Notes: generated by a model not told the origin, from the sequence alone. Shown: positions 15,029 to 35,210, counted from the first letter of the stretch. The stretch: 64,000 nucleotides of DNA from Myxococcota bacterium (GCA_965223415.1 OZ245002.1:4896001-4960000); one strand, 5' to 3'. Program-made: numbers and translations.

Positions 15029-15520
15029 ACGCTCGAAGCGCACGGCATCTCGGTCGTGCTCTCGGGTGGAGCCGTCGTCTCGATCTACTCCGATGCGGAG
15101 TACGTCTCGTACGATCTCGATTTCATTCCCACGGGCCTCGCACGGAAAGTCGACACCGCCATGGAATCCCTCGGCTTCAAGAAGACCCAGCGGCACTGGA
15201 CGCATCCAAAGAGCCGCTACTGAGTCGAGTTCCCACCCGGCCCGGTGGCGATCGGAGACGAAACGATCCGCAGCTTCGCCGAGCGCGAGACGCGAATGGG
15301 GACGCTGCGACTGCTGGCTCCGACCGAGTGCGTCATGGACCGGCTCGCCGGGTACTTCCACGATGCGGACACGCAGTGCCTCGAACAGGCGATCCAGGTC
15401 GCGACGCGGCATCCCGTCGATCTGAAGCGCATCGCGAGGTGGGCGCGCGCTGAGCGGCCTCATGGTGAGGAACGCTACCGGGAGTTCGAGCGGCGGCTAC
15501 GCGAGACCGCGGGTCGGTAG
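15029..15520 (+). pseudogene. 5'-truncated, nonsense-interrupted paralog of the nucleotidyltransferase-like gene at 28244-28795
   Basis: TLEAHGISVVLSGGAVVSIYSDAEYVSYDLDFIP nearly identical to the paralog; TGA at 15221-15223 where the paralog has TGG. Confidence 0.85.
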
Positions 15521-15599
15521 CCGCTCTGACTGGCAGGATTCGAACCCCCGACCCTTGTATCTACTCCACTCACCCGGATCTGGTTCAATAGGGTCAGAA

Positions 15600-15790
15600 C
15601 GGGTTTCGGGGGAGGGTCGCCGTCCCGACCCAGAGGCATGGTCCTCGTACCTGAGAGAGGCGCCCTCGCCCGATCTCGCAAGCTCGAACGGTATCCCGAG
15701 GCAGCGGTCTGCCGCTCGTCCTCGCATGCACAAGGAAGAGCACCGAGGTCGGCACCGAGGCTCCCGACGCTCCCGTTCGAGGAGGAAGAA
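15600..15790 (+). ncRNA. Predicted IS110 bridge RNA (also present in copies 2 and 3)
   Basis: Target loop CCCGACCC (15624-31) and ACCTGAG (15649-55); donor loop ACGGTATC (15688-95) and ACAAG (15730-34); each loop has an inner hairpin; boundaries approximate. Confidence 0.8.
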
Positions 15791-15794
15791 GGGG

Positions 15795-16970
15795 ATGCGC
15801 TTCGTTGGGATCGACATCGCCTCGGAAACGCACGTCGTCGCGATGGTGGGAGAAGACGGGGGCGTGCTGCTGAAGCCGGTCTCGTTCCGGGAGGAGGCGG
15901 CTGGCTACGCACTGCTGTGGGAGAAGCTGGGAGGCCCCGAGGACACGCTCGTAACGCTCGAGGCAACGGGGCACTACTGGAAGAACCTGTTCGCGGCGCT
16001 TGCGGCGAGGGGTTTTGCCGTGGCGTTGATCAACCCGCTGCGCAGTCGCCGGTTCGCACAAGAAGACTTGGAGCGGACGAAGACCGACGCAATCGATGCG
16101 CTCGGCCTGGCTCGCTTCGGAGCACAGAAGCGTCCGAGGGTGACTCGCCTTCCGGACGCGGCGACAGAAGAGCTTCGTGAGCTCGTCCGGCTCCGCGATC
16201 GTCTGGTTCAGGACTTCGGGGACTGCACCCGGCGGCTCCACCGCATGGTCGATCTGGGCTTCCCAGAGCTCAAACGGTACGTGAAGCACCTCGATAGCCA
16301 GCTGTCGACGGGGCTGCTGCGGGAGTACCCCACGGCAAGAGCCTTCCAGGAAGCCTCTGTGGGGCGCGTGGCAAAGCTTCGCTACGACGGTCGTCATCGT
16401 GTAGGCGATGCGCTCGCGAAGCAGCTCGTCGAGGCTGCGCAGAACTCGGTGGGCGCCCATCATGGCCCGGCCTACCAGGTGCAGGTGCGTTACCTGTGCG
16501 AAGACATGGACGTCTTGCGCAAGAGACTCGGCGACATCGACCGCGACATCGCGGATCAGCTATCCGCGCACGAGGTCGGAAGCTTGCTGACGACGATCGA
16601 TGGGATCGGGCCGACGACGGCAGCACGGCTCATCGCGGAGCTCGGTGACCCGGCCGACTTCGCCACGGCCGCAGCCCTCGCCGCCTACGTGGGCGTCGTT
16701 CCAGGCCTAAAGCAGTCGGGCAAGCGCCAAGGCAAACGCGGGAACCTCTCGCCAATCGGTCACGCGCGGCTACGTCGCGCACTGTGGATGCCGACGTTGG
16801 TCGCCGTTCGGAAGAACCCCTGGGTGCGGGCCCACTACGAGCGGCTGCGCGACAACGGCAAGCCCGCAAAGGTCGCGCTGATCGCCTCGACGAGGAAGCT
16901 GCTCATCGCGGTTCACGTCGTGGCGAGGACCCGCAAGCCCTTCGTTCCACAGCTAGAGACCAACCCATGA
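15795..16970 (+). CDS. IS110 recombinase/transposase
   Basis: FVGIDIAS, LEATGHYW, KTDAIDA (DEDD); GVVPGLKQSGK (catalytic Ser region). Confidence 0.95.
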   Translation: MRFVGIDIASETHVVAMVGEDGGVLLKPVSFREEAAGYALLWEKLGGPEDTLVTLEATGHYWKNLFAALAARGFAVALINPLRSRRFAQEDLERTKTDAIDALGLARFGAQKRPRVTRLPDAATEELRELVRLRDRLVQDFGDCTRRLHRMVDLGFPELKRYVKHLDSQLSTGLLREYPTARAFQEASVGRVAKLRYDGRHRVGDALAKQLVEAAQNSVGAHHGPAYQVQVRYLCEDMDVLRKRLGDIDRDIADQLSAHEVGSLLTTIDGIGPTTAARLIAELGDPADFATAAALAAYVGVVPGLKQSGKRQGKRGNLSPIGHARLRRALWMPTLVAVRKNPWVRAHYERLRDNGKPAKVALIASTRKLLIAVHVVARTRKPFVPQLETNP

Positions 16971-17605
16971 ACCGAGAAAACCGGGCCCAGCCCCTTGCTG
17001 AAGATCACGGTATCTCAGGTTCGAAGCCTGATGCTCGATGTCGAGCCACCGGACAGCGCACTTCGAAGAACCGCGTGCATCCAGGCGTCAAGGGTCCGAG
17101 ATCAGGCGCTCCGCGCAACAACCAAGCACGACCAAAGTGCGGAACCAAGCACCGCCAGAACGCGAATTCCTCAGCGAATCCGGCGGCTTCTGGCGGGGCG
17201 GACGGGACTCGAACCTACAACCTCCGGCTGTAAGTCCGCGGAAACGCAGGGGTCCGAAGAGGTGAAGCTTGTATCCCGTTGTATCCCAACCGGGGCACGC
17301 CGGGCCAGGTAGGGCGATGGGGCGGCGGCGGGTAGCCGCCATCCCTCGGGTCCGCGAGCGAGCCCCCTTGCCAGCGCCTCGACGTGAGCTAAATCGGCAT
17401 TGGATCGCACGCAGACATCCCGGGGTCGAGGCCAAGGCGGCGTAGCCCCGGCATGGCTCTTGCGCGCGCCTTGTTGAGGATGTCGCCCGGGTCCGGGTGA
17501 GCTTCGCGTCCCCGCACTGCGGGGGCACGCATCTCCATCTCTTCAGGGCGCCACCGGTCCGCGATCGCGGCGCCCTGTCCCCTCGGCCGGGCGACGTGGG
17601 CCGGC

Positions 17606-18886
17606 TTGCGCGTCTTCTCCGTCTCGCTCTCGCTGCTCGTCGCCGTCGGGCTCTCGCTCGCAGGCAACGGCCTCCTCGGTACGCTGTCGGCACTTCGCCT
17701 CGCCGACGCAGCCCTGCCCGACGAACTGACCGGCCTCGTCCTCGCGGCGTACTTCGCAGGCCTCATGGCCGGCACGCTCGGGCTCGGGAGGACAGTGGCT
17801 CGGGTCGGTCACATCCGGTCCTTCGCGGCCTTCACGGCACTCGCCGTGTTCGCGGCGCTCGCCCAGGGCCTCACCTCGCCGGGCATGCTCTGGCTTCCGC
17901 TTCGGGCGATGACCGGACTGTGCATGGCCGGGACCTACCTGACCGTCGAGTCCTGGCTCCACGCGGAGGCCGGCCCGGAGAGCCGCGGCCGTGTGCTGGC
18001 CGCCTATCTCGTCGCACTCTACCTGGGTACCGGGGCCGGTCAGCTCCTGCTGCCGCTCGCGCCTACCGAGACCCTCGACGCGTTCGCGCTGGCTGCCCTG
18101 CTGACGAGCCTCGCAGTGGTCCCGGTCTGTCTGACGCGCGTTTCTGCACCTCGCCTCGAGCAAGCGGCGACCAGGGCGACCTCCGGGCTCGTGCGCGACG
18201 CGCCCCTCGGGCTCGGCGGGGCCCTCGTCTCGGGATTCGTCGCGGGCACCATCTACGCGAACGCACCGCTCCTTGGGCGCGCGACCGGCATGGAGTCGAC
18301 CGACGTTGCCGGCCTGATGGCCGCCTTCTTCGCGGGCGGCCTCGCCGGACAATGGCCGCTCGGCCGGCTTTCGGACCGCATGGATCGTCGGCTCGTTCTC
18401 TTGGGGGCGATGTTGGGTCTCGCTGGGCTCTGCGCCGCGTTCCTCTTAGTGGCCGCCACGCCTTCCACCATCTGGTGGGCGCTCGCCTTCGCGTTCGGCG
18501 CCCTGGCCTTTGCCCTCTACCCGCTGGCCGTGGCGCACACCATCGACCGGGTGGGTGCGAATCACTCGCTCCCGGCAACGAGTCAGCTCCTGCTGGCTTC
18601 GTCGATCGGCGCGTTCTCGGCACCGGTGCTCGTCGGCGCGGCGAGCCCCTGGCTCGGTGCTTCCGCGTTCCTCCAGCTCGACGCGCTGCTTCTGGTCGGC
18701 TTCAGCCTCGCGGCCTCGCTGCGGATCCTCCGTGTCGATCCGGTCCGCCAGGGTCCGTTCCAGCCCATGGCGAGGACGACACAAGCGGCGCACGAGCTCG
18801 ATCCGCGCCACAGCGGTGACGCTTCATCCCCCGGGCACCAAGCCTCGGTTCCCGCTCGACCCGCGACGGTCGGAGACACCCCATGA
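17606..18886 (+). CDS. MFS transporter (YcaD-like)
   Basis: ~12 TM segments, RVGHIRSFA, ESWL, GRLSDRMDRR. Confidence 0.85.
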   Translation: MRVFSVSLSLLVAVGLSLAGNGLLGTLSALRLADAALPDELTGLVLAAYFAGLMAGTLGLGRTVARVGHIRSFAAFTALAVFAALAQGLTSPGMLWLPLRAMTGLCMAGTYLTVESWLHAEAGPESRGRVLAAYLVALYLGTGAGQLLLPLAPTETLDAFALAALLTSLAVVPVCLTRVSAPRLEQAATRATSGLVRDAPLGLGGALVSGFVAGTIYANAPLLGRATGMESTDVAGLMAAFFAGGLAGQWPLGRLSDRMDRRLVLLGAMLGLAGLCAAFLLVAATPSTIWWALAFAFGALAFALYPLAVAHTIDRVGANHSLPATSQLLLASSIGAFSAPVLVGAASPWLGASAFLQLDALLLVGFSLAASLRILRVDPVRQGPFQPMARTTQAAHELDPRHSGDASSPGHQASVPARPATVGDTP

Positions 18887-18944
18887 AGAACCGCCGGCCC
18901 GGCGACATCCCCCTCAGCCAGATTGCGAGCGCGAGGGCGGCAGC

Positions 18945-20132
18945 GTGAAGCTCGCCATCCTCTCGAGAGAACCGCGGAGCTACAGCACGCGCCGCCTGAA
19001 GGAAGCCGCGCGGGAGCGCGGCCATCGGGCCCGCGTACTCGATCCGACGCTGTTCTCGATCGAAGTCGCGAGCGGGAACCCACACCTCTACTACAGAGGG
19101 CGCGCGCTGGAGCGTTTCGACGCGGTGATCCCGCGTATCGGCGCCTCCATCACCTTCTTCGGAACGGCGGTCGTGCGTCAGTTCGAACAGATGGGCGTGT
19201 TCTGCGTGAACACGTCCACGGCCATCTCGACGTCGCGCGACAAGCTCCGGGCGCTCCAGATCCTGAGCCGGCACCACGTCGGCATCCCGAAGACGTCCTT
19301 CGTTCGCGAGAAGAACGCGATGCTCGAAACGGTGGAGCGGATGAAGGGCCCGCCGGTCATCGTGAAGTTGCTGGAAGGGAGTCAAGGTCTGGGTGTGATC
19401 CTCGCCGAGACGAAGAAGTCCGCGGAGGCGATCGTCGAAACGCTCCAGTTTGCGACGGGCAACAATGTCCTCATCCAGGAATTCGTGGCCGAGTCGCGCG
19501 GCCGCGACATCCGCGCCTTCGTTGTCGACGGCCGGGTCGTCGCGGCCATGCGGAGAACGGCGCAGGAGAGCGAGTTCCGGAGCAACGTCCATCGCGGCGG
19601 GCTGGCCGACGCGGTGGAGCTCGATCCTGTGTACGAGCGCACCGCCATCCACGCTGCCCAGATCCTCGGGCTCCGGGTCGCCGGCGTGGACATGCTCGAG
19701 GGCGCCGATGGCCCGATGCTGATGGAGGTGAACTCGTCGCCCGGCCTCGAGGGCATCGAAGGGGCGACTGGCGTCGACATCGCGGCGACCATTCTCGAGA
19801 TGATCGAAGATCAGGTGCTCTTCCCCGAGATCGACATCCGGCAGCGACTCACACTGCAGAGCGGGTACGGCGTGCTCGAGATCCCGATCGACCGCGGGTC
19901 CGAGCTGTGCGGGCGGACGATTCGCGAGTCCGGTCTGAAGGGTCGGGACGTCCTCGTCCTCCAGATCCAGCGTGGCAGCGTCACGATCCCCAACCCGAAG
20001 ACGAGCCGGGAGATCCTGGCTGGCGACGTGCTGCTCTGTTTCGGCAAGACGTTGACCCTCCGCACCCTGGCGCCGGCACCGCGACGTCGCAATCGGCGTC
20101 GCGGCTCGGCCGTGGGGGCCGCCGATGGCTGA
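18945..20132 (+). CDS. rimK: RimK-family alpha-L-glutamate ligase with C-terminal TrkA-C domain
   Basis: KLAILSR..YSTRRL, DAVIPRIGAS, FRSNVHRGG, EVNSSPGLEGIE. Confidence 0.85.
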   Translation: MKLAILSREPRSYSTRRLKEAARERGHRARVLDPTLFSIEVASGNPHLYYRGRALERFDAVIPRIGASITFFGTAVVRQFEQMGVFCVNTSTAISTSRDKLRALQILSRHHVGIPKTSFVREKNAMLETVERMKGPPVIVKLLEGSQGLGVILAETKKSAEAIVETLQFATGNNVLIQEFVAESRGRDIRAFVVDGRVVAAMRRTAQESEFRSNVHRGGLADAVELDPVYERTAIHAAQILGLRVAGVDMLEGADGPMLMEVNSSPGLEGIEGATGVDIAATILEMIEDQVLFPEIDIRQRLTLQSGYGVLEIPIDRGSELCGRTIRESGLKGRDVLVLQIQRGSVTIPNPKTSREILAGDVLLCFGKTLTLRTLAPAPRRRNRRRGSAVGAADG

Positions 20133-21156
20133 ATGCGTCGAGATCGCGGGAGAGACGATTCGGCGCGGGGAACGTCGGCGAATCCAGATCCCGCTGGCGC
20201 TGCGGCCGACACAGGCCGAGGTCTCGATGTCCGCGGAGGTCATCTGCGGGGCCCGGGACGGGCCGCAGCTCTTCGTGTGCGCCGGCATTCATGGGGACGA
20301 GATCAACGGGGTCGAGATCATCCGGCGCGTGTTGCGCCGCTCGTTCCGGGGGCTTCGGGGGACGCTCCTGGCGGTTCCGATCGTGAACGTCCACGGATTC
20401 GTGGCCCACAGCCGAACCCTGCCCGACCGGAGGGATCTGAACCGCGCCTTCCCGGGCTCGCCCCGAGGATCGCTCGCGGCGCGGCTTGCGCACCAGTTCA
20501 TGGAGAACGTGGTCAAGGCTTCGACGCATGGCATCGATCTCCACACGGCGGCGATCCACCGGGAGAACCTCCCGCAGATCCGCGCCTGCCTCGACGACTC
20601 CGAGACCGAAGAGCTCGCGCGAGCGTTCGGTACGCCCGTTCTGCTCAACTCCGACCTGCGCGACGGGTCGCTCCGCGAGGCGGGACAGGAGCACGGGGTT
20701 CCGGTCCTCGTCTACGAGGGCGGCGAGGCGCTGCGATACAACGAGGCCGCCATCCGCGCCGGCGTGCGCGGGGTGCTTCGCGTGATGCGCCAGCTCAGGA
20801 TGCTCCCGGATGCGGGCGATCGGGGTCGTATCATCGAGCCGTTCGTCGCCCGCAGCAGTGCCTGGGTACGTGCGCCCGAAAGCGGGCTGCTGCGGGTCCG
20901 CGCCAAGCTCGGTGCTCGCGTCAAGAAGGGGTTCGTCCTCGGCGTCATCTCCGACCCGCTGGGCACGGAGGATACGACCGTCAGCGCGAGCCGCGCCGGA
21001 ATCGTGGTGGGCCGCACGCGTCTTCCCGTCGTGAACGAGGGCGATGCACTCTTCCATGTCGCGAGCTTTGACGCGGTGCAATCCGTGGCGCGGGAGGTCG
21101 AGTCCTTCCACGATGAGCTGTTTGATTCCGGCGTTTCGCCCCCCATGGCGGACTGA
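20125..21156 (+). CDS. Succinylglutamate desuccinylase/aspartoacylase family (M14-like)
   Basis: GIHGDEING, DLNRAFPG, IDLHT. Confidence 0.9.
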   Translation: MAECVEIAGETIRRGERRRIQIPLALRPTQAEVSMSAEVICGARDGPQLFVCAGIHGDEINGVEIIRRVLRRSFRGLRGTLLAVPIVNVHGFVAHSRTLPDRRDLNRAFPGSPRGSLAARLAHQFMENVVKASTHGIDLHTAAIHRENLPQIRACLDDSETEELARAFGTPVLLNSDLRDGSLREAGQEHGVPVLVYEGGEALRYNEAAIRAGVRGVLRVMRQLRMLPDAGDRGRIIEPFVARSSAWVRAPESGLLRVRAKLGARVKKGFVLGVISDPLGTEDTTVSASRAGIVVGRTRLPVVNEGDALFHVASFDAVQSVAREVESFHDELFDSGVSPPMAD

Positions 21157-21170
21157 GAAGGAGCAGATCG

Positions 21171-22361
21171 ATGCGCGGTTGGATCCTCGACGGCAAGCCC
21201 GTCCCGGACCCCTCACTCGAAGGCTACGAAGTTCGTCGGTTCCTGGAGGTCGGCGAGAGAGTCGGCATCGATGTCGACCTGGTCACGCCCGAGCAGCTCG
21301 ATCTCGTGGTGACGAGCAGTGGCCGCCCGAGCATCGCGCGGAACGGCAGATCCGTTCCGCTCCCCGACTTCCTGCTTCCGCGCATGGGTGCTTACACGAC
21401 CTACTTCGGGCTTGCCGTGATCCGGCACCTGGAACGCCTGGGAGTGCTGACGGTCAACTCGGCCGAGAGCATCGACACCGTGAAGGACAAGCTCTTCACC
21501 CACCAGATCCTCGCTCAGAACGAGCTGCCGATCGCGCGAACGATGCTCGCCAAACATCCGCTCGACGTCGCCTTCGTGGAGAAAGAGATCGGATTCCCGG
21601 TCGTCGTGAAGACGATCACCGGATCCCAGGGGGCCGGTGTCTTCCTTTGCGAGGATCGTCACCACTTCGAGGATCTGATGGAGCTCGTTCTCGCCGCGCG
21701 CAGCAACGCGAACCTGATCCTCCAGGAGTACGTGGCCTCGAGTCGAGGGCGCGATCTCCGCGTGTTCACGGTCGGCGGCCGCGCCGTGGCCGCGATGGAA
21801 CGTTCTTCGCAGGACGGCTCGTTCAAGGCGAATGTCTCGAGGGGCGGACGGGCCACCGCCTACTCGTTGGACGCCGAGAGCGAGTGGCTGGCGCTCGAAG
21901 TCACGCGCTTGCTGGGTCTCGACGTGGCGGGGATCGATCTGCTCTTCGACGGCGACCACTACCTCGTCTGCGAGGCGAACTCGTCGCCCGGTTTCCGCGG
22001 TCTCGAGTCGTGCTGCGCCGTCAGCATCCCGCACGAGATCCTGCGCTTTGCTGCGCTCCGCCTCGGTCGCCACGACGTCGCCGACCGGCTCGAGGTGGAT
22101 CTCGCGGAGTCGTTCGGCGACCCGCCGGTCGGCGTTGCGAGCACATGGTCCAACGCGCACTGTGCGGTGAGCGCTAGCGGCACCAGCGACGCAGAGCGCG
22201 CGCTCGCCGAGGTGGGCGCGGTCAAGGGCCAGGGTGGCTGCATGGCGATCGATGGGCGGGGTCGCATCACGACGGTCCTGAACAGCCCGCAGATGGTGCG
22301 AGCATCGCTCGTCGAGGGCGAGCCCATGCGTCTCGGGATCTGGACGGATGACGATGCGTGA
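21171..22361 (+). CDS. Second RimK-family ATP-grasp ligase with C-terminal extension
   Basis: LPRMG, GSQGAGV, FKANVSRGG, CEANSSPGF. Confidence 0.85.
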   Translation: MRGWILDGKPVPDPSLEGYEVRRFLEVGERVGIDVDLVTPEQLDLVVTSSGRPSIARNGRSVPLPDFLLPRMGAYTTYFGLAVIRHLERLGVLTVNSAESIDTVKDKLFTHQILAQNELPIARTMLAKHPLDVAFVEKEIGFPVVVKTITGSQGAGVFLCEDRHHFEDLMELVLAARSNANLILQEYVASSRGRDLRVFTVGGRAVAAMERSSQDGSFKANVSRGGRATAYSLDAESEWLALEVTRLLGLDVAGIDLLFDGDHYLVCEANSSPGFRGLESCCAVSIPHEILRFAALRLGRHDVADRLEVDLAESFGDPPVGVASTWSNAHCAVSASGTSDAERALAEVGAVKGQGGCMAIDGRGRITTVLNSPQMVRASLVEGEPMRLGIWTDDDA

Positions 22362-22765
22362 CCACGACCTGCCTGGGCTGCCGCCCGGACTCACCCGCCG
22401 AACCCGACTTGGAGGCCGCCGTGGAAATCGCAAGAACTGGTGAGATCGTCCACATCATCGAGCGGCGCCTGTTCGTCGGTGATGTCCGCCGCCACTTCGT
22501 CGGAGAGGTCGAGGCGTGCGCCGACCGTGCGCTTCGGGTTCGTGGTTATCTCTTCGTCTATGACTCCTCCGAGAGCGCGTTCACGAAGAAGCCCGAGCTC
22601 CGCACTCGAATCTTCCCGCTCGACAATCGGCTGATCCTGAGCCTTTTGCCGCAGGGGACACACCTGGAACAGGTCCGATACGACCACGACGACGAGGGCA
22701 ACCTGTCCCTGGTCGACGGAGCCGACCTCGAGCTCGACATCAGCGAGTTCAGCTCCCGGGAGTAA
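22358..22765 (+). CDS. Hypothetical protein
   Basis: GTGA overlap with the upstream gene; plausible coding composition. Confidence 0.65.
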   Translation: MTTTCLGCRPDSPAEPDLEAAVEIARTGEIVHIIERRLFVGDVRRHFVGEVEACADRALRVRGYLFVYDSSESAFTKKPELRTRIFPLDNRLILSLLPQGTHLEQVRYDHDDEGNLSLVDGADLELDISEFSSRE

Positions 22766-22847: not shown

Positions 22848-23140
22848 ACCCCCAGGTTCGAAGCCTGGTGCTCAACCTCGCTCCGCGCGGACACGAGCGC
22901 GCGTGTCGGCGAAGCTGGAACCCGCTTGGTTCCCGGATGTATCCCGCGCGCGTCGCGGCTCGACAACCGCTGCTCGCGCGTGGACTTACGCGCGAAGCGT
23001 GCGGGTTCCGAGAAACCCGAAAAGCTGAATGAAATCAGCTTGATGGCGGGGCGGACGGGACTCGAACCTACAACCTCCGGCTGTAACCTCCCGGAAACAC
23101 AGGGGTCCGAAGAGATGAAGCTTGTATCCCGTTGTATCCC
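22848..23140 (-). repeat. Junction repeat J2
   Basis: acccccaggttcgaagcctggtgctc (22848-73); tRNA-Asp-like half 23044-23086; ttgtatcccgttgtatccc 23122-23140. Confidence 0.85.
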
Positions 23141-23258: not shown

Positions 23259-23486
23259 ATGACGAAGAGGCTGACGCGCTCTGGAAACAGCCTGGCCCTC
23301 GTGATCGATCGGCCTCTCCTGGAAGCGCTGGAAATCGACGCGGACACGGAGCTGGAGCTCTCCACCGATGGAGACGTCCTAGTCGTGACCCCGCTGCGCG
23401 ACCCCAAGCGGAGGCGTCGGGTCGCCGAGCTCGTTGCCGAAGCCCACGAGCAGTACGGCGGCGTGTTCCGACGCCTCGCCGAGTGA
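23259..23486 (+). CDS. AbrB/MazE-type antitoxin
   Basis: MTKRLTRSGNSLALVIDRPLLEAL swapped-hairpin motif; overlaps the toxin gene. Confidence 0.9.
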   Translation: MTKRLTRSGNSLALVIDRPLLEALEIDADTELELSTDGDVLVVTPLRDPKRRRRVAELVAEAHEQYGGVFRRLAE

Positions 23487-25076: not shown

Positions 25077-25104
25077 CCGCGACCTGGGACTCGAACCCCC
25101 AACC

Positions 25105-26887: not shown

Positions 26888-27133
26888 ATGAAGACGACAG
26901 TCGAGATTCCGGATCCGCTGGCCGACGAAGCCAAGGCCGTCGCGCAGCGCGACAAGACCACGCTTCGCGAGCTCATCGAGACGGGACTTCGACTGGTGCT
27001 TCGAGAGCGACGGCGCAAGACCCGCTTTCGCCTTTGCGACGCCAGCTTCCGAGGACGCGGGCTTCAGCCGGAGTACCAGGACGAAGACTGGCAGCGGATT
27101 CGAAACGCTGCCTACAAGGGCCGCGGCGGTTGA
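26888..27133 (+). CDS. VapB-like RHH antitoxin (DUF2191-like)
   Basis: MKTTVEIPDPL..AKAVA..TTLRELIETGLR. Confidence 0.85.
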   Translation: MKTTVEIPDPLADEAKAVAQRDKTTLRELIETGLRLVLRERRRKTRFRLCDASFRGRGLQPEYQDEDWQRIRNAAYKGRGG

Positions 27134-27564
27134 TCGCCGTCGACACGAATCTCCTCGTCTACGCCCACCGCGCAGAATCCGATTGGCACGGTCGAGCTGC
27201 GGCATGCGTTCGCGAGCTCGCAGACGCGAGAGCGCCGTGGGCCATCCCGTGGCCATGCATCCACGAGTTCCTCGCCATCGCGACCCATCCCAGGATCTGG
27301 GACCCGCCCTCGCCCACGGAGGCGGCGCTCGACCAGGTCGAAGCCTGGATCGAATCGCCCGGGCTGGTCTTGCTCGCGGAGGGCGCGGATCACTGGAGCG
27401 AGCTTCGCGGCCTGGTCGAGGCCAGTCGCATCGTGGGGCCGCGGGTCCACGACGCGCGCATCGCAGCTCTTTGCCGCGCGCATGGCGTACGCGAACTATG
27501 GACAGCGGACCGCGACTTCAGCCGGTTCTCGAGCCTCGTCACGGTGAACCCGCTGACTCGCTAG
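27130..27564 (+). CDS. vapC: VapC/PIN-domain toxin
   Basis: IAVDTNLLVYA, HDARIAAL, TADRDF. Confidence 0.9.
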   Translation: MIAVDTNLLVYAHRAESDWHGRAAACVRELADARAPWAIPWPCIHEFLAIATHPRIWDPPSPTEAALDQVEAWIESPGLVLLAEGADHWSELRGLVEASRIVGPRVHDARIAALCRAHGVRELWTADRDFSRFSSLVTVNPLTR

Positions 27565-27589: not shown

Positions 27590-27796
27590 CGATCCCCAAC
27601 CCTCGGGGTTGGAGCCCAACCAGGCGCTCGTGGCGACAACCGAGCACGACCAAAGCGCGGAACCAAGCGCCGCCAGAACGCGAATTCCTCAGCGAATCCG
27701 GCGGCTCGTGGCGGGTCGGACGGGACTCGAACCTACAACCCCCGGCCGTAACCCCTCGGAAACGCAAGGGTTCGTAGGACTGCAGCTTGTATCCCG
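27590..27796 (-). repeat. Junction repeat J5 (degenerate Arg half, conserved spacer and Asp-like half)
   Basis: caggcgctc..acaaccgagcacgaccaaagcgcggaaccaag..; tggcgggtcggacgggactcgaacctacaacc 27709-51. Confidence 0.85.
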
Positions 27797-27914: not shown

Positions 27915-28247
27915 ATGCTCGAAGGCATCTTCGGAAACGCCAGCGCGGAAAAGGTCCTCCTCTATCTGGAGCAGTACGAGGAAGGGTACGCGACGGCGAT
28001 GGCTCGAACTTTCGACGACCTCTCGCTGAACATGGCCCAGCGGCAGCTCGAGCGGTTCGAGCGGGCCGGTGCGCTTGTGAGCTCACTCCGAGGCCGAACC
28101 CGCCTCTACACATGGAATCCTCGCTACCCGTTTCGCCGGGAGCTGCGGGCCCTGCTTCGCAAGGCCCTCGACCAACTGCCCGCCTCCGAGCGGAAGCGCT
28201 ACTTCACCGAGCGCAGACGGCCGCGCCGTGCGGGCAAGCCACTGTGA
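27915..28247 (+). CDS. Winged-HTH protein (putative antitoxin/regulator)
   Basis: EKVLLYL..YATAMARTF..AQRQLERFERAG..GRTRLY. Confidence 0.8.
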   Translation: MLEGIFGNASAEKVLLYLEQYEEGYATAMARTFDDLSLNMAQRQLERFERAGALVSSLRGRTRLYTWNPRYPFRRELRALLRKALDQLPASERKRYFTERRRPRRAGKPL

Positions 28248-28795
28248 ACGCGCAGCATCGGATCGACGAGGACACCTCCCTCGAGGAGGTCGCCGCTCTC
28301 GTCTGCACGACCCTCGAGGCGCACGGCATCTCGGTCGTGCTCTCCGGCGGCGCCGTCGTCTCGATCTACTCCGACGCCGAATACGTCTCCTACGACCTGG
28401 ACTTCATCCCGATCGGACTCGCTCGGAAAGTCGATGGCGCCATGGAGTCACTCGGCTTCGAGAAGCGGCAGCGCCACTGGACGCATCACCGAAGCCGGTA
28501 CTGGGTCGAGTTCCCTCCCGGCCCCGTCGCCATCGGGGAAGAGACGATTCGCAGCTTTGCGGAACGCGAGACCCGGGCAGGGACCCTGCGCCTCCTCGCT
28601 CCGACCGAGTGCGTGATGGATCGGCTGGCCTGGTATTTCCATGACGCGGACACGCAGTGCCTCGAGCAGGCGGTTCGTGTTGCGACGCTCCAGCCGGTGG
28701 ACCTGAAGCGCATCGAACGGTGGGCGCGCGGCGAAGGGCCTCGTGGCGAGGAGCGATTTCGGGAGTTCGAGCGGAGGCTGCACGAGAAGAAATGA
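28244..28795 (+). CDS. Nucleotidyltransferase-fold protein (putative toxin)
   Basis: VLSGGAVVSIYS..SYDLDF; GTGA overlap with the wHTH gene. Confidence 0.75.
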   Translation: MNAQHRIDEDTSLEEVAALVCTTLEAHGISVVLSGGAVVSIYSDAEYVSYDLDFIPIGLARKVDGAMESLGFEKRQRHWTHHRSRYWVEFPPGPVAIGEETIRSFAERETRAGTLRLLAPTECVMDRLAWYFHDADTQCLEQAVRVATLQPVDLKRIERWARGEGPRGEERFREFERRLHEKK

Positions 28796-28816
28796 CGCGG
28801 ACTTGCGCGTCGTCGC

Positions 28817-29047
28817 GGTGCAGGGGGGTGCAATAGGGTGCAGGGAGGTGTCGTTTCGACGGCACCGAACCGCGGGACGGCACCATACAGAGCGCGAACG
28901 GGTAGGTTCCGGACCTGCCCGAGCGGGATTCGAACCCCCGACCCCCAGGTTCGAAGCCTGAACGGACCCGTAGGAAATCCAAATGGTTGCGCGATTCCGA
29001 GCGGGAATGAACGGGAATACGCGGGAATACGGGCACAAAATGGTCAC
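28817..29047 (-). repeat. Junction repeat J6 (GGTG x4, tRNA-Arg(UCG) half, GGGAAT x3)
   Basis: gggattcgaacccccgacccccaggttcgaagcctg 28925-60; flanking repeats phased at 10 bp. Confidence 0.85.
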
Positions 29048-29209
29048 GCGAGAGAGAGCGTTCCGGGACCTTACTCGATGACCCTTTTGCGCGGCGACTC
29101 GGCGTGAGTCACGCCTCGGAGCGAGAGTCCTGGCCGATGATTCACGGGTGCCGCACGGCGAAGAAGGCGAGGCCCGGCCGAGCAGTAAGTAAGGCGTTGG
29201 TACGGTCCC

Positions 29210-29674
29210 CTATCCGTCCCGGGACTTCGAACGCACTTGCTCGAAGGCCTTCTTGATATGTGGCGAACTGTCCGCGCGAACCTGCGGAACGCCTTCCTGC
29301 AGTTGTATCCAGCCCGGGAGATGGTCCTCGACCCCGAAATAGAACGAAGGGGACTCGATCTCGAGCGGCTCATCCAGCGTGCCGATAAAGATGCTCTCGA
29401 GGTTGCTCATGTCCCCGGTCGCATAGCTGTGCCCGATGTGCGTCCCACACTCCGGACAGAAGTGCCTCTCGAGAATTGGTGAGGTCATGAACCGGGCCGG
29501 TTCCCCCTTCGTGAACCGGAAGCTGTCGAGATCGAAGAAGGCGCCCGTTCCTGCAGCCATCCCCGTCCAACGCTGGCACATCCGGCAATGGCACATGCCG
29601 GTCGTGACGGGCGATTCCGTCGATTCATATCGGATCGCCCCACAGTAACAGCCCCCGGAGAATGTTCTGGGCAT
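29210..29674 (-). CDS. GFA/CENP-V family Zn protein
   Basis: GGCYCGAIRY, CHCRMCQR, FCPECG. Confidence 0.9.
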   Translation of the reverse strand: MPRTFSGGCYCGAIRYESTESPVTTGMCHCRMCQRWTGMAAGTGAFFDLDSFRFTKGEPARFMTSPILERHFCPECGTHIGHSYATGDMSNLESIFIGTLDEPLEIESPSFYFGVEDHLPGWIQLQEGVPQVRADSSPHIKKAFEQVRSKSRDG

Positions 29675-29862
29675 GGCTCTCCCCGATGCGACGTCTATTC
29701 GTAAGTCCTCGTCCATTGTCGCCTCTGCACCGGCAGCCTGTCCACCGGGGTTGCTTCTCACGCACTGATGGTTCGGACGAGGCCTTCCTCGGCGTGCGGA
29801 GATGAGTCACCGCGGGCGGGTGCCGAATCCCTTCGGACCTCGGTGACGGGTTGGTCATCGCT

Positions 29863-30522
29863 TCAGGAGCTTGGTCCCTCCTCGTAGTCGAGCGCATCGC
29901 GCGCCCGCTCGGCGATCGCTTCGTACACCGAGCGCGCCCAGGCCTCCTTCTCGTCATCGAGCTCGATGGTCTCCCAGTCTGAGACCGCCGCCTGGGCCCA
30001 CTCCCCCCACTCGCCGAGCGCGGTCGCCAAACGCGCGACCAGCTCGGCCACGAGCGCCGCCGTGTGGATCCGCTCGGGCACCGCGAAACCGTCTTCCAGC
30101 AGCGCCTCGGTCCCCGCGACGGCCTGGTGCAGCCACTCGGACCGACGTTGCCGCCCGCGCGCGAGCGTCTCGCGAAGCTGTTCGATGTCGCTGGCGGTCG
30201 CGTAGGCAATCTTGAGCGCGAACTCGAGTTCGAACGAGGCGGGGGGCGCCGGAACCGAGAGCCAGTGCGCGAGAGCGCGACGGCCGGCCGGCGTGATGCG
30301 ATACACGGTGCGCTCGCGTGCTCCCGAGCGCTCCTTGCGGCTCTTCGCGTAGCCCGCTGCCTCGAGGTCCTTGGGCGCCTGATAGATCTTGCTCTCGGCT
30401 CGCGGCCAGACGAAGCGGAGATTGCTGCTGGTCTTCATGTGGCGCGCGAGCTCGTAGGCGGACCAGGGGCGCGCGGCGAGCAGGCCGAGGATCGCGTAGG
30501 CGTTCGGACTCAGGTCGGGCAT
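29863..30522 (-). CDS. PadR-family transcriptional regulator
   Basis: YAILGLLA.RPWSAYEL, SKIYQ..LE..GY, YRITPAGRRAL. Confidence 0.9.
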   Translation of the reverse strand: MPDLSPNAYAILGLLAARPWSAYELARHMKTSSNLRFVWPRAESKIYQAPKDLEAAGYAKSRKERSGARERTVYRITPAGRRALAHWLSVPAPPASFELEFALKIAYATASDIEQLRETLARGRQRRSEWLHQAVAGTEALLEDGFAVPERIHTAALVAELVARLATALGEWGEWAQAAVSDWETIELDDEKEAWARSVYEAIAERARDALDYEEGPSS

Positions 30523-30532
30523 CGCAGAAATA

Positions 30533-30575
30533 TACTCCCTTAGGGAGTAATCTGTGTATACTCCCAATGGAAGCA
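30533..30575. promoter_or_regulatory. Palindromic operator(s) in a divergent promoter
   Basis: TACTCCCT-T-AGGGAGTA perfect palindrome at 30533-49 plus an imperfect second copy. Confidence 0.7.
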
Positions 30576-30606
30576 GATCTTCCAGCCCTCCGAGGAGGCG
30601 ACTGCG

Positions 30607-32070
30607 ATGACGAGCCCCGAGTCGATGATCCCGCCCGCCGTGGGCGATTATGAGGTCGACCGCCAGCGCCATTGCGCAGCGATGGGCGCGGGTCTTGGCG
30701 AGGAGGTCGCCCGGCTCGGTGCCGGCCCGGTCGAGATCGCCCGGATCCGGGACGAGCGCCTGCGCGGCCTGCTGGCCCACGCCCGCACTCACTCGCCGTG
30801 GCATCGCGAGCGCCTCGCCGGGCTCGAGGTCGACCGTATCTCTGCGGCCGACGTGAGCGCGCTGCCCTCCATGACGAAGGCCGACCTCATGGAGTACTGG
30901 GACGAGATCGTCTGCGACCCGCAGCTCGACCTGAAGCAGGTCGAGGCCCACATCGAACGCATCGCACACGACGGTCCGTCTTACCTGCACGACCGGTACC
31001 ACGCGCTCGCGACGGGCGGGTCGACGGGCAGGCGGGCCGTCGTCGTCTGGGACTTCGACGGCTTCAGGATCACCGGAACACGCTCGCCGGCGTGGAGCCT
31101 GTCGTGTAGCGTGCACCTGGGTCTGCCGACATCGTTGCCGATCGTCGCCTGCATCGTCGCGTCCAAGGGCGCGACACACCTCGGCGGCGCGGTGAACGCC
31201 TGCTTCTCCAACCCCGAGAGGGCAACCTACGTCTCGGTCGCCGCGTCCCAGCCGATGGAAGAGATCGTCCGGATCCTCGAGGAGGCGCAGCCGGTCGTCC
31301 TCAGCGGCTACGCGTCGACGCTGCAGCAGCTCGCGGAGCTGAAGCTCGCCGGTCGCCTCGATATCGCGCCGGCCCAGGTTGTCCAGGGAGGCGAGCCCTT
31401 CCTTCCCGAGGCGCGCGCCGCGGTCGACGCCGGCTTCGGATGTCCCGTACGCGACCAATGGGGAGCGTCGGAGATCGGCTGGGGCGGCTCGTCGTTCCCC
31501 GGGACGGAAGGCATCGTGCTCTGCGAGGATCTCGTGACCGTCGAGCCTGTCGATGGCGACGGGCGCCCTGTCGGCCTCGGTGAGCCGGCCGCGAAGCTGT
31601 TCGTCACCAACCTCGTCAACCGCGTGCTGCCGGTCATCCGCTACGAGATCAGCGACGAAGCGACGATGGTCGCCCCCGATCCCGACTGCCCCTGGACGGG
31701 GCATCGCCTCCTCGCGATTGAGGGCCGACGGGACGACGTGTTCACGTACGGCGATCGCACGGTCCATCCCCACGCGTTTCGCAGCGTGCTCACGACCCAC
31801 GGAGCCATCGCCGAGTACCAGGTGCGACAGACCGAGCACGGAGCCGATGTCGACGTCGTCGGAGCCGCACCCGGCGCGTGTGATGCGCTCGAAGGGTCGA
31901 TCGCGGGCGCGCTCGCCCGCGCGGGCCTCGACTCGCCCCTCGTCCGCGTCACGCCGGTCGAGTCGATCCCACGCCAGCCGAATAGCCACAAGCTGAGGCG
32001 CTTCGTTCCGCTCTCCCGACCGAACGCCTCCGGGGCGCCAGACAGTCGTTCTCGGAGAGACTGCGGATGA
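30607..32070 (+). CDS. Phenylacetate-CoA ligase family (adenylate-forming) protein
   Basis: ATGGSTG P-loop, WGASE, IRYEISD, GRRDD. Confidence 0.85.
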   Translation: MTSPESMIPPAVGDYEVDRQRHCAAMGAGLGEEVARLGAGPVEIARIRDERLRGLLAHARTHSPWHRERLAGLEVDRISAADVSALPSMTKADLMEYWDEIVCDPQLDLKQVEAHIERIAHDGPSYLHDRYHALATGGSTGRRAVVVWDFDGFRITGTRSPAWSLSCSVHLGLPTSLPIVACIVASKGATHLGGAVNACFSNPERATYVSVAASQPMEEIVRILEEAQPVVLSGYASTLQQLAELKLAGRLDIAPAQVVQGGEPFLPEARAAVDAGFGCPVRDQWGASEIGWGGSSFPGTEGIVLCEDLVTVEPVDGDGRPVGLGEPAAKLFVTNLVNRVLPVIRYEISDEATMVAPDPDCPWTGHRLLAIEGRRDDVFTYGDRTVHPHAFRSVLTTHGAIAEYQVRQTEHGADVDVVGAAPGACDALEGSIAGALARAGLDSPLVRVTPVESIPRQPNSHKLRRFVPLSRPNASGAPDSRSRRDCG

Positions 32071-32987
32071 CGGACACGACCACAGCCCTCGCCGAGCACC
32101 TCTTCTACCCCGTCTTCGTGTACGGGCGGGGCATCCTCATCTTCTGGCTCTGCGTTGCGTTCGGCGCCGACAACCCGCAGCTGTTGCCACTGCTGATGCT
32201 GGCCTTCCTGATCGGCAGCCTCGCGATCCTGGCCGTTGCAGAGCGCCTGCTTCCCTACCGGACCGACTGGCTCGAATCCGGCGACCCACAGATCTGGAAC
32301 GACGTGGGCCACTCGTTCGTCTACCTGGTGGTGGGGACGCGTCTCGGCCAGATCCTCGTGCTCTCCACCGCCATCGCGCTCGTGGGCAGCGCCGAGGCGC
32401 GGCTCTGGACGGGCGTGTGGCCCGACGCCTGGCCGCTCGGCGCCCAGATCGCGCTCGTGATCGTCCTAGGCGACGTGCTCGAGTACGGGTACCACCGGCT
32501 CTCGCATACCCTCTCGTGGATGTGGCCGATCCACGTGCTGCACCACACGCCGGACCGCATCCACGCGCTCAAGACGTACCGGCACCACTGGCTCTACTCG
32601 CTGCTACGAAGCCTCTTCGTGGGCCTGCCCCTCATGCTCGCGGGCGCACCACTGGGCATGCTGGTCTGGCCCGCAGTGGCGATCTCCATCGTCGGGTCGA
32701 TCTCACACGCCAACGTCCGTCTTAGGATGAGCCCCTTCTGGTACCGCGTGCTCAACACGCCGGAGCTCCACCGTATCCACCACTCCGTCGATCCCGCGCA
32801 CCACAACGCCAACTACTGCTTTGTGCTGCCGATCTGGGACCTCCTCTTCGGCACCTTCGTCGCACCCGAGCAGACGACGGTCCGTACTACCGGTCTCACC
32901 GACGATCCCGTTCCCAACGGCTTCCTGCGCCAGCTCGCCCTGCCACTGACCCTTCGACGCGAGAATACCTCCGAGATAGATCACTAG
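32067..32987 (+). CDS. Sterol desaturase/fatty acid hydroxylase family
   Basis: YHRLSH, HVLHH, HRIHH His boxes. Confidence 0.9.
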   Translation: MTDTTTALAEHLFYPVFVYGRGILIFWLCVAFGADNPQLLPLLMLAFLIGSLAILAVAERLLPYRTDWLESGDPQIWNDVGHSFVYLVVGTRLGQILVLSTAIALVGSAEARLWTGVWPDAWPLGAQIALVIVLGDVLEYGYHRLSHTLSWMWPIHVLHHTPDRIHALKTYRHHWLYSLLRSLFVGLPLMLAGAPLGMLVWPAVAISIVGSISHANVRLRMSPFWYRVLNTPELHRIHHSVDPAHHNANYCFVLPIWDLLFGTFVAPEQTTVRTTGLTDDPVPNGFLRQLALPLTLRRENTSEIDH

Positions 32988-33079
32988 GGCGGCGTGGGGT
33001 CGTACTCCATGAGGTGGCGCGTGCGTGCTCGGTGTGTGCGGACTCACTGGCACGCCGGGAGGGATTCGAACCCCCGACC

Positions 33080-34541
33080 CTTGTATCTACTCCACTCACC
33101 CGGATCTGGTTCAATAGGGTCAGAACGGGTTTCGGGGGAGGGTCGCCGTCCCGACCCAGAGGCATGGTCCTCGTACCTGAGAGAGGCGCCCTCGCCCGAT
33201 CTCGCAAGCTCGAACGGTATCCCGAGGCAGCGGTCTGCCGCTCGTCCTCGCATGCACAAGGAAGAGCACCGAGGTCGGCACCGAGGCTCCCGACGCTCCC
33301 GTTCGAGGAGGAAGAAGGGGATGCGCTTCGTTGGGATCGACATCGCCTCGGAAACGCACGTCGTCGCGATGGTGGGAGAAGACGGGGGCGTGCTGCTGAA
33401 GCCGGTCTCGTTCCGGGAGGAGGCGGCTGGCTACGCACTGCTGTGGGAGAAGCTGGGAGGCCCCGAGGACACGCTCGTAACGCTCGAGGCAACGGGGCAC
33501 TACTGGAAGAACCTGTTCGCGGCGCTTGCGGCGAGGGGTTTTGCCGTGGCGTTGATCAACCCGCTGCGCAGTCGCCGGTTCGCACAAGAAGACTTGGAGC
33601 GGACGAAGACCGACGCAATCGATGCGCTCGGCCTGGCTCGCTTCGGAGCACAGAAGCGTCCGAGGGTGACTCGCCTTCCGGACGCGGCGACAGAAGAGCT
33701 TCGTGAGCTCGTCCGGCTCCGCGATCGTCTGGTTCAGGACTTCGGGGACTGCACCCGGCGGCTCCACCGCATGGTCGATCTGGGCTTCCCAGAGCTCAAA
33801 CGGTACGTGAAGCACCTCGATAGCCAGCTGTCGACGGGGCTGCTGCGGGAGTACCCCACGGCAAGAGCCTTCCAGGAAGCCTCTGTGGGGCGCGTGGCAA
33901 AGCTTCGCTACGACGGTCGTCATCGTGTAGGCGATGCGCTCGCGAAGCAGCTCGTCGAGGCTGCGCAGAACTCGGTGGGCGCCCATCATGGCCCGGCCTA
34001 CCAGGTGCAGGTGCGTTACCTGTGCGAAGACATGGACGTCTTGCGCAAGAGACTCGGCGACATCGACCGCGACATCGCGGATCAGCTATCCGCGCACGAG
34101 GTCGGAAGCTTGCTGACGACGATCGATGGGATCGGGCCGACGACGGCAGCACGGCTCATCGCGGAGCTCGGTGACCCGGCCGACTTCGCCACGGCCGCAG
34201 CCCTCGCCGCCTACGTGGGCGTCGTTCCAGGCCTAAAGCAGTCGGGCAAGCGCCAAGGCAAACGCGGGAACCTCTCGCCAATCGGTCACGCGCGGCTACG
34301 TCGCGCACTGTGGATGCCGACGTTGGTCGCCGTTCGGAAGAACCCCTGGGTGCGGGCCCACTACGAGCGGCTGCGCGACAACGGCAAGCCCGCAAAGGTC
34401 GCGCTGATCGCCTCGACGAGGAAGCTGCTCATCGCGGTTCACGTCGTGGCGAGGACCCGCAAGCCCTTCGTTCCACAGCTAGAGACCAACCCATGAACCG
34501 AGAAAACCGGGCCCAGCCCCTTGCTGAAGATCACGGTATCT
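33080..34541 (+). mobile_element. IS110-family element copy 3
   Basis: Same sequence as copy 1; CT cores at 33080-81 and 34540-41. Confidence 0.95.
33321..34496 (+). CDS. IS110 recombinase/transposase
   Basis: Protein identical to copy 1. Confidence 0.95.
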   Translation: MRFVGIDIASETHVVAMVGEDGGVLLKPVSFREEAAGYALLWEKLGGPEDTLVTLEATGHYWKNLFAALAARGFAVALINPLRSRRFAQEDLERTKTDAIDALGLARFGAQKRPRVTRLPDAATEELRELVRLRDRLVQDFGDCTRRLHRMVDLGFPELKRYVKHLDSQLSTGLLREYPTARAFQEASVGRVAKLRYDGRHRVGDALAKQLVEAAQNSVGAHHGPAYQVQVRYLCEDMDVLRKRLGDIDRDIADQLSAHEVGSLLTTIDGIGPTTAARLIAELGDPADFATAAALAAYVGVVPGLKQSGKRQGKRGNLSPIGHARLRRALWMPTLVAVRKNPWVRAHYERLRDNGKPAKVALIASTRKLLIAVHVVARTRKPFVPQLETNP

Positions 34542-34688
34542 CAGGTTCGAAGCCTGGGGCTAAATCGAGACGGAGCAGGTAGTTGGCCGGCTGCGATCGG
34601 GAATGCTCGGGAATCTACGGGAATGCGGGCACGATCTGGTCACAACCCGAGTGAGATCGATCTGGCGCACAGGATGGGCCAACGATCT

Positions 34689-35144
34689 TCAGTGCTTGTG
34701 TTGATGCTCGTGAGAATCCTCTTCTCCGAAGGTCGCGACAAGTCCGCTGATCACGTCAGCGCGGTCATCATCCGAAAGCCGTGCGCCCGGATGTAGCGGT
34801 AGATAGAACCAAGGTGGCATCTCGCCGTCCCGGACGAGCTCCCCGGCCTTGTCTCCGTGGTTCTCCTTCTCTCCCCACTCGGAGACGTTGAAGTGCGAAC
34901 GGCCTTCTTCGACGTCCCATTGGACTAGCCAGGAGGACGGCGCTACGAGGCTGTACCACGGCCACTCAGTCTCGTTGCTGTGGCAATCCTTGCACGCTCG
35001 AAAGAAGAGCTCTCGCGTGCGAGGCCGGTCCCAAGCTGGCTCTCGAATGATCTCCGGATTCGATCGATCGCGCCCGTACGGAACGACCTGAACGACCAGC
35101 AGGAGACCGGCGATCAGCGAGAGGGAGAATCGGATCTTCCGCAT
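34689..35144 (-). CDS. Heme-binding domain (Haem_bd) cytochrome c
   Basis: ACKDCHSNET.WPWY, GEMPPWFY. Confidence 0.9.
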   Translation of the reverse strand: MRKIRFSLSLIAGLLLVVQVVPYGRDRSNPEIIREPAWDRPRTRELFFRACKDCHSNETEWPWYSLVAPSSWLVQWDVEEGRSHFNVSEWGEKENHGDKAGELVRDGEMPPWFYLPLHPGARLSDDDRADVISGLVATFGEEDSHEHQHKH

Positions 35145-35210
35145 GGATGCTCCTCGGTCCGACGATAGAGGACCGAACGCCACTCCGGCAGTGACCGGTG
35201 GCCTCAGGGG

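Follow-up and report, generated by a model that had tools for sequence, protein, structure and literature searches.

A probable displaced stack of integrase-less modules bounded by tRNA-Asp- and tRNA-Arg-derived sites in a Myxococcota genome

The 64,000-nucleotide stretch analysed here, referred to as the window, corresponds to positions 4896001-4960000 of a Myxococcota genome (G000), where it lies within a single 5.83-Mb contig of 71% G+C. Between window positions 15029 and 35144 it carries an array of compact gene blocks separated by seven junctions (J1 to J7). This array is probably a displaced part of a long stack of integrase-less modules, each bounded by attachment (att) sites, that grew at a tRNA-Asp(GTC) gene and was reshuffled by visiting integrases. 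An earlier note on this DNA had described it as an integron-like array of cassettes delimited by tRNA-derived att sites. All seven junctions were found where that note had placed them and in one orientation, with their tRNA pieces read on the minus strand. Their sequence is accounted for by tRNA pieces and arm repeats, and the reading of them as tRNA-derived att sites rather than attC sites was borne out, with no attC box pair in 14 strand scans (seven junctions, both strands). The Rfam scan of window positions 5000-45000 gave no match and ARAGORN recognised no real tRNA anywhere in the window. Identity to tRNA-Asp sets in at the T loop, and for tRNA-Arg it does so at the anticodon stem; the T loop and the anticodon are the named crossover subsites of tRNA islands in the available text of the Islander study (PMC4383910).

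The complete arrangement can be seen in J3 (23918-24190, minus strand), where a tRNA-Arg piece (23918-23959), a conserved spacer referred to as S, the tRNA-Asp(GTC) 3' end (24094-24117) and a direct-repeat dyad referred to as D1 (24173-24190) follow one another. J1 is likewise complete. It comprises, on the minus strand, the T-arm side of a tRNA-Arg(TCG) piece (15533-15554), the Arg anticodon arm, a putative crossover core, with the D-stem remnant GAGCA on its attB-like side (17016-17038), spacer S (17039-17190), whose triple repeat ~43-70 bases from the Asp end may be an attL-side arm, and the tRNA-Asp(GTC) 3' end from T loop to CCA together with the D1 arm dyad (17191-17288; GGGATACA twice at 17270-17288). 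An architecture shared by J1 to J5, as claimed earlier, holds for these two junctions; J2, J4 and J5, all on the minus strand, are variants. J2 (22848-23140) has a different spacer with a degenerate D1-type arm near 22938 and, on its Arg side, the anticodon arm only, with GAGCA (22848-22875), next to an Asp end at 23044-23067 and a D1 dyad at 23123-23140. J4 (25087-26819) combines an Arg T arm (25087-25105) and anticodon arm (26567-26589) with a chimeric spacer, an Asp end bearing a one-base deletion (26727-26749) and a different dyad, D2 (TTGAGCAC twice; 26800-26819). J5 (27590-27795) has a degenerate Arg piece, a shortened spacer S, an Asp end at 27709-27732 and half of a D1 dyad. J6 and J7, also on the minus strand, are without an Asp piece. 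The left side of J6 (28790-28890) is an attR-type arm with GTGCCG repeats at 28860 and 28878 and a deleted core, and its right side (28919-29047) holds Arg anticodon and T arms followed by a second Arg arm type, ATTCCC three times (29003-29028). J7 (33048-34643) has a full Arg 3' half with CCA (33048-33080), an anticodon arm and the same ATTCCC triple (34599-34624). The earlier description of the Arg pieces as 3' halves fits J7 only; most consist of the anticodon arm, the T arm and five D-stem bases on the spacer side.

The last 24 bases of tRNA-Asp(GTC) match the genome at 12 places with at most two mismatches, all on one strand: the gene itself, seven fragments in a second array (G000 5.39-5.45 Mb) and four in the window, to which J4 with its deletion adds a fifth window copy. 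Of the 20 matches to the tRNA-Arg(TCG) anticodon arm, the window has 6, the second array 7 and the tRNA-Arg locus 3, and 4 lie outside these places. The 13 Arg cores and 12 near-exact Asp ends of the two arrays lie on a single strand throughout, and three shuffled genomes gave 0, 0 and 0 Asp matches, 2, 0 and 0 Arg matches and no D1 dyads. The second array starts at the intact tRNA-Asp gene (5456702-5456778), extends to ~5.38 Mb, and carries the same junction parts as the window array together with paralogous toxin-antitoxin (TA) modules. Across G000 a TA or TA-like gene stands beside the arm at 10 of 12 Asp fragments, of which three rest on weak or no family matches and one is a lone helix-turn-helix gene.

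In the assembly, the window array is part of a larger stack that has been split from the tRNA-Asp array by an insertion sequence (IS) of the IS21 family and lies ~0.5 Mb away from it; an IS21-linked rearrangement would have moved it this far from the tRNA. Position 15029, taken earlier as the start of the array, is actually where IS21a (12727-15028, genes on the minus strand) cut it. Directly behind this element stands the 3' part, with an in-frame stop, of a nucleotidyltransferase (NTase)-like gene of the kind that partners a winged helix-turn-helix (wHTH) gene (15029-15520, plus strand). An identical IS21 in the same orientation at G000:5431082 is preceded by a wHTH gene and the matching NTase-like 5' part (G000:5430682-5431081). 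Compared with the intact wHTH-NTase-like paralogue at 27915-28795 (plus strand), the two gene pieces are complementary, covering positions 1 to ~400 and ~390 to 873. The flanks of both copies (window 15029 and G000:5431081) have the same five bases, as in a 5-bp target duplication; a lone five-base match among 21 x 19 IS21 flank pairs could be chance, so that it is the continuity of the gene which links the window array to the second array. At least five other IS21 ends have their partners at distant copies, and the genome has been either rearranged at IS21 elements or mis-joined there. G000 holds 21 IS21a left ends, often inside other IS elements, and 9 IS21b copies, many with a target-duplication partner at a distant copy, as after repeated IS-linked rearrangement or mis-joins. 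A second IS21 type lies to the right of the window array (~35610-38131). A truncated Arm-DNA-bind_3 integrase (12270-12726) was considered as the integrase of the array and rejected, since it lies across the IS21 break, beside a tRNA-Arg(CCT)-like piece, and is therefore a neighbour by rearrangement only. At window positions 12080-12726 this tRNA-Arg(CCT)-like 3' fragment, with a T arm similar to that of tRNA-Arg(GCG), precedes the 5' portion of the integrase that IS21 interrupts; tRNA-Arg(CCT) itself is encoded 147 kb off on the other strand.

Where the window piece lies depends on a join through a 2.3-kb repeat, and the contigs of the sequencing runs break at the junctions, so that reads verify neither its place nor the order of its parts. 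This gives some footing to the idea that the array is an assembly artefact, or that the junction is a repeat multiplied within G000, of the kind of miniature inverted-repeat transposable elements (MITEs) or repetitive extragenic palindromes (REPs). Such an origin is nevertheless hardly credible. Copies are confined to the two arrays in one orientation and are not scattered genome-wide, independent assemblies show like arrays, and long contigs from two samples have 0 differences from the window modules. Of the S copies, 6 of 7 have their closest match outside G000, as do 6 of 9 D1 copies; similarity within G000 and between genomes is 0.81 vs 0.80 for S and 0.83 vs 0.75 for D1. The junction copies therefore appear to have arrived with their modules, not to have been amplified locally.

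The repeats that flank the Asp ends recur beside integrases in other genomes. Thirty loci of one tyrosine-integrase family (assigned by Pfam PF00589) were compared; in those located at tRNA-Asp, a short direct-repeat pair lies ~42-46 bases behind the CCA end, and the motif is a different one for each integrase. The D2 motif TGAGCAC, as in J4, is located at +44/45 behind an intact tRNA-Asp with its integrase in four relatives (G043, G015, G004, G068), and the D2 dyad is found at both ends of the G043 island. The D1 motif of J1-J3 and J5 occupies the equivalent place beside a tRNA-Asp integrase in G001. Of 43 distinct sites with the D1 dyad upstream of the core, 42 have 56 bases between the end of the dyad and the T loop. 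Arm-type binding repeats are an established part of tyrosine-integrase biology. From this and from their position, the junction repeats are predicted to be arm-type integrase binding sites. An Asp junction reads arm dyad, T loop to CCA and next arm, which is the hybrid site that successive entries at one tRNA end leave behind, and its dyads are the motifs that flank intact tRNA-Asp tyrosine integrases in relatives.

The Arg side has a resident candidate enzyme. The left side of J6 aligns with the attR of a 40-kb island in an intact tRNA-Arg gene of G000, and the integrase of that island (G000:1217093-1218292) has an open frame with the usual catalytic residues. Judged from sequence, this integrase could act on its own arm type; no matching attL arm was recognised for it in the window. 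Its frame continues to 1216112, running antisense across the whole tRNA into the next gene, stop-free for 726 codons from stop to stop. The intact tRNA-Arg(TCG) has a small stack of its own (G000:1217012-1269516), in which the integrase island is followed by integrase-less genes as far as a third Arg core at G000:1265315; the gene at G000:1267852 is 84% identical to a gene behind an Arg core in the G043 tRNA-Asp array. Two GTGCCG-type Arg arms without a tRNA core are found at G000:1070455 and 1075726, distant from both arrays.

Spacer S joins the two tRNA targets. It follows an Asp end, has its triple repeat at the usual arm distance and terminates in the tRNA-Arg piece. The D-stem bases GAGCA 5' of the Arg core are kept in 17 of 18 cores within 235 bases of an Asp end (the remaining one reads GTGCA) and in none of the 16 Arg cores that are not; S-linked Arg cores thus resemble attB and the remaining cores attR. 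Considered as a possible tail of an integrase gene, S has an open frame in J1, J3 and J5 but no catalytic tyrosine at the position expected for the integrase family. S, the commonest left end of units, may, through the attB-like 5' side of its Arg piece, serve as a landing pad that Arg-type modules occupy in some copies and not in others. An XRE regulator with its putative NTase (24242-25076, plus strand) adjoins an S-type, apparently empty pad at J4, its counterpart at G000:5416897 adjoins an ATTCCC arm and an AAA-DUF4143 gene, and the end of another at G000:5391930 adjoins a third arm type. Similarly, an AbrB/MazE-like antitoxin with a Doc/Fic toxin (23260-23875, plus strand) faces an empty S pad at J3 vs an Arg-type unit in L065, L102 and L032. 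At G000:5419351-5419420, G000:5449809-5449878 and L030:1435-1504, where a full Arg 3' half follows S, ARAGORN reports a tRNA-Arg of 70 bases in which the D arm is shortened and the acceptor stem poor; a whole tRNA gene may have given rise to the pad.

The same Arg site is used by an IS110 element. Identical 1461-bp copies are located in J1 (15555-17015, plus strand, transposase 15795-16970), J4 (25106-26566) and J7 (33081-34541); the earlier statement that no cassette encodes a recombinase is correct for the modules, while these three junctions each hold a transposase. The element was identified by PF01548 and PF02371 (DEDD and Tnp domains) and by NF033542 (254 bits vs a cut-off of 140). All five copies in G000, including one at G000:2539268, sit at the same position of an Arg-like site or tRNA fragment, and none is in an intact tRNA gene. 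The left end (window 15555-15794) contains four ordered motifs, at 15624, 15649, 15688 and 15730, that match the left target, the right target, the element's own right end and its own left end, which is the layout described for the bridge RNAs of IS110 in the available text of PMC11208160. The fold of this left end is no better than that of shuffles (z -0.52), and the right-target motif implies a CT core where IS-free Arg cores with an intact run read CC. These motifs are candidate guides and suggest an IS110 guided to the tRNA-Arg(TCG) pad. Sequencing depth in two runs suggests 6-8 copies of the element vs 5 in the assembly. An IS481-like element or remnant starts a few bases past a tRNA-Arg CCA end at window ~11100-12075, G000:1256850 and G000:5419339, placements which suggest a second IS that targets att sites.

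Comparison between genomes shows that both the order and the content of the arrays differ. Among 60 relatives, J3 is matched beyond its tRNA part in three genomes of the same genus (G001, G004, G005), three of the same family (G022, G025, G027) and four of other families (G043, G058, G046, G052); most other matches are tRNA genes only. In tRNA sense, the window reads VapBC (VapB-like antitoxin and VapC (PIN) toxin, 26888-27564, plus strand), XRE-NTase, AbrB-Doc, and G043 reads AbrB-Doc and then VapBC. Module boundaries often coincide with junction cores: 6 of 12 module alignments begin within 5 bases of the Asp end and 3 continue because both copies have S, and in L102 and L065 AbrB-Doc homology begins at 23039/23044, at the Asp end, and stops at 23952/23951, in the Arg anticodon arm. 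Between G000 and G043, a genome of a different family, TA proteins are 83-99% identical; for 14 genes from a single core region the median is 60%. The D1 site with an XRE-NTase module also occurs in L045, L047, L058, L059 and L071, in records labelled Acidobacteria, Thermoleophilia and Gemmatimonadota, which reflects either wider spread or wrong labels.

Breakpoints would likewise fall near shared sequence if the junctions were fossil island sites that are shuffled today by homologous recombination between junction repeats and IS copies. Junction copies share up to 220 bases at 77-89%, the array contains three identical IS110, and many IS21 copies have swapped flanks. Nevertheless, modules are exchanged even at junctions whose arms differ, where the common sequence is as short as ~25 bases (Asp) or ~35 bases (Arg). 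Selection for site-specific recombination is also indicated by the constant 56-base distance of the arms and by the clean division of Arg cores by GAGCA, making the homologous route quite improbable.

Site-specific movement itself can be imagined in two ways. In the preferred account of a displaced tRNA-Asp stack, visiting elements with an integrase would integrate at the hybrid sites and depart with, or delete, neighbouring modules, mainly by cis capture as in the cis-mobilizable elements (CIMEs) compared below, which would reshuffle and spread them; TA pairs beside the arm would persist because their loss is penalised. Alternatively, in line with the mobilisation in trans that the earlier note supposed, each ~1-kb unit, made up of an Asp core, S, the Arg pad, TA genes, an arm and a further Asp core, would be excised as a circle and reinserted alone by a visiting integrase acting in trans, with S as the attL arm. 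The two were weighed with 41 units between consecutive Asp cores, from 19 contigs or regions. Nine of these are below 1.5 kb (0.84-1.19 kb) and 39 are without any integrase trace, as had been claimed for the cassettes, two having an integrase match; among relatives, remnants of integrases occur in few units (L115, L123, L111). Twenty-one units start with S, the chimeric spacer of J4 being counted as S, and 15 of them close in a D1 arm. Such small, clean, recurrent S-Arg-TA-arm units speak for single cassettes, especially if the D1 integrase can read the S triple, one repeat of which, reversed, matches the D1 site at 7 of 9 bases; S is also ~80% conserved across families and stands directly after the intact tRNA-Asp in G000 and G005. 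However, the S repeats are inverted relative to the Asp-family arm dyads and were never seen upstream of an Asp core, only 7 of the 41 units carry the same dyad at both ends, the run contigs revealed no excision joint, and cis capture accounts for the same layouts. That the arms at the two ends of a unit so often differ is easier to reconcile with cis capture and with exchange inside units at the Arg pad than with free cassettes, and movement of single cassettes in trans is unlikely.

The enzymes available to the arrays bear on the same choice. G000 has ten tyrosine recombinase matches, none inside either array and none closer than 40% to the D1 or the D2 integrase. With no close Asp integrase in G000 or in most carriers, the Asp enzymes would be visitors. 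No match was found for J3 among plasmids, or for the D1 site and the D1 integrase among phages or viral contigs. The best-supported clean contig joints (22869-28824, 23068-26751 and 25081-28935) match junctions already present in the second array; the lack of cover over 29.3-33 kb in run X12, of which 66% was covered, is given no weight.

Several observations count against a stack reshuffled by visiting integrases. In five relatives that carry an array, none of the integrases is closer than 45% to that of D1. Among 60 integrase loci (30 of the Asp family and 30 of the Arg family) there is none for spacer S or for the ATTCCC arm, and S was not seen beside an integrase in 9 metagenome loci or 20 further regions either. 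No unit holds remnants of conjugation genes, which would prove decay from an integrative and conjugative element (ICE) or an integrative and mobilizable element (IME). No recombination was observed, and the contigs of four runs, which drop rare variants, hold no well-supported joint that the second array lacks. The surveyed loci were retrieved with D1 and S queries, so that the unit counts are biased towards these types; 3 of the 12 module alignments span genes only, and the Arg end could not be scored for two. A search for the 5' part of the gene at G000:5433383, which would mark the other break of the displaced piece, found nothing.

A bolder combination of these elements can be put forward tentatively, as a possible but doubtful reading. 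It would be a two-tier system of gene capture with no recombinase of its own, in which 1-kb non-autonomous units dock at tRNA-Asp, are held by their TA genes and each bring a decoy tRNA-Arg attB, while two visiting integrase families move the units in trans. If this were true, every new unit would add a pad for a second class of modules as well as a harmless sink for an IS110 guided to tRNA-Arg, and the array would be an integron-like platform made of phage-type att sites.

The remaining cargo, identified like the rest by Pfam and NCBIfam profiles, is without transfer genes and is largely as described earlier. The unit between J2 and J1 has D1-type arms at both ends and carries a major facilitator superfamily (MFS) transporter, RimK-TrkA_C, AstE/AspA, RimK and a hypothetical gene (17606-22765, plus strand). 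Between J6 and J7 are GFA, PadR, CoA-ligase-like and fatty acid hydroxylase/desaturase genes (29210-32987, strand unspecified), and a haem-binding protein gene follows J7 (34689-35144, minus strand), the other end of its unit not having been found. Two NTase labels are weak: 24561-25076 has a sub-threshold DUF6036 match, and 28244-28795, the partner of the wHTH gene, has no family match, so that its TA role is putative. To the right of the array, a low-GC stretch (39580-41456) holds an AAA ATPase (AAA_21) and DUF4276 pair, a possible defence module, and island-like composition stops near window position 42 kb.

Among known systems, the array looks like a two-site, integrase-free form of stacked genomic islands and not like an integron. 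Integrons have attC sites with RYYYAAC ... GTTRRRY boxes and a linked IntI with attI. The likeness to integrons and to clusters of attC sites lacking integron-integrases (CALINs) consists of co-oriented, small, TA-rich modules with no recombinase per module; the junctions here differ in having no attC boxes, and the modules bring their own divergent genes and regulators. An IntI-like gene, labelled from sequence and not by profile, lies 2.8 Mb off (G000:2062336-2063328), with no junction similarity within 2.050-2.085 Mb. The region that follows it is IS-riddled, and no attC box pair there passed a simple fold filter. The attB of myxophage Mx8 lies in tRNA-Asp genes. In the available text on Mx8 (PMC6070905) its att is within the integrase coding sequence, as with the Asp and Arg integrases described here, which have frames that cross the tRNA in antisense; the D1 integrase differs in having no match among 50,697 phage records or in viral contigs.

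Tandem islands at tRNA or ssrA genes are closer. In the Prochlorococcus tycheposons (bioRxiv 10.1101/2020.12.28.424599) and the Dehalococcoides ssrA islands (PMC3146451), as far as the available text of both reports goes, newcomers push older elements off the tRNA and leave partial tRNAs, whereas the integrase-less units here keep an exact arm geometry and are not eroded remnants. The islands collected by Islander, in the available part of that report (PMC4383910), share a tRNA gene with displaced, co-oriented 3' fragments at island ends and both crossover subsites. Each island in that collection must have an integrase and measure 2 kb or more, and only 4 tandems of three or more are listed; the units described here, with no tyrosine integrase of their own within the interval, would be rejected. 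The dif modules of Acinetobacter (pdif), in the available text of PMC13141974, are recombinase-free, often carry TA genes, have two kinds of site, depend on an external tyrosine recombinase and attract a site-targeting IS. They differ in using the host XerC/D on plasmids at short, arm-less sites, with a 6-bp spacer between the XerC and XerD binding sites, in contrast to the chromosomal, tRNA-derived sites with predicted integrase arms seen here.

The closest counterparts are the CIMEs and microCIMEs of streptococci, which in the available text of two reports are att-bounded elements with neither integrase nor transfer genes that accumulate by tandem accretion at the 3' end of a target gene; CIMEs measure 1.2-13 kb, gene-less microCIMEs 130-220 bp, and chimeric attI sites occur (PMC5704250; PMC7563491). 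The two arrays share with them att sites in the absence of integrase or transfer genes, stacking, chimeric sites, a spacer S of microCIME size and, as in G043, an integrase-bearing element nearest the target. The boundaries are integrase att sites, with tRNA cores and arms common with integrase islands, and the second array begins at an intact tRNA-Asp to which the window piece is tied through the split gene. The earlier opinion that no such architecture has been described was thus too strong, while the junction of two tRNAs is indeed without a counterpart in the literature found. The arrays differ from streptococcal composites, which in the same text comprise 2-3 elements, in holding 12 Asp fragments and 13 Arg cores in one former stack; in addition, a conserved pad interleaves two tRNA targets, identical kinds of 1-kb TA module turn up in several families, and no ICE or IME parent is visible. 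A CIME is expected to derive from an ICE or IME by decay and to move only in cis with an autonomous neighbour.

On present evidence the array is therefore a variant of tandem att-bounded islands and no new class. A literature search, with most subscription papers and supplements outside it, found neither an Asp-spacer-Arg junction nor such a long two-target stack. New here are the assignment of cognate integrases to three arm types, an attB-like signature in the pad, boundaries of modules that fall at the cores, the displacement linked to IS21 and an IS110 that may be guided to the pad. Such arrays escape both kinds of search tool, since an island finder needs an integrase and an integron finder needs attC. 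Candidate enzyme-site pairs can now be named (the D1 integrase of G001 at L117:3883-5262, a D2 integrase at L023:13256-14476 or in L116, and the resident Arg integrase), which makes the choice between movement in cis and in trans testable. If the modules are shuffled as their breakpoints suggest, TA and metabolic genes move in this way between families of uncultured bacteria. Set beside the known stacked islands, it is the two-tRNA pad that is the special part of this array.

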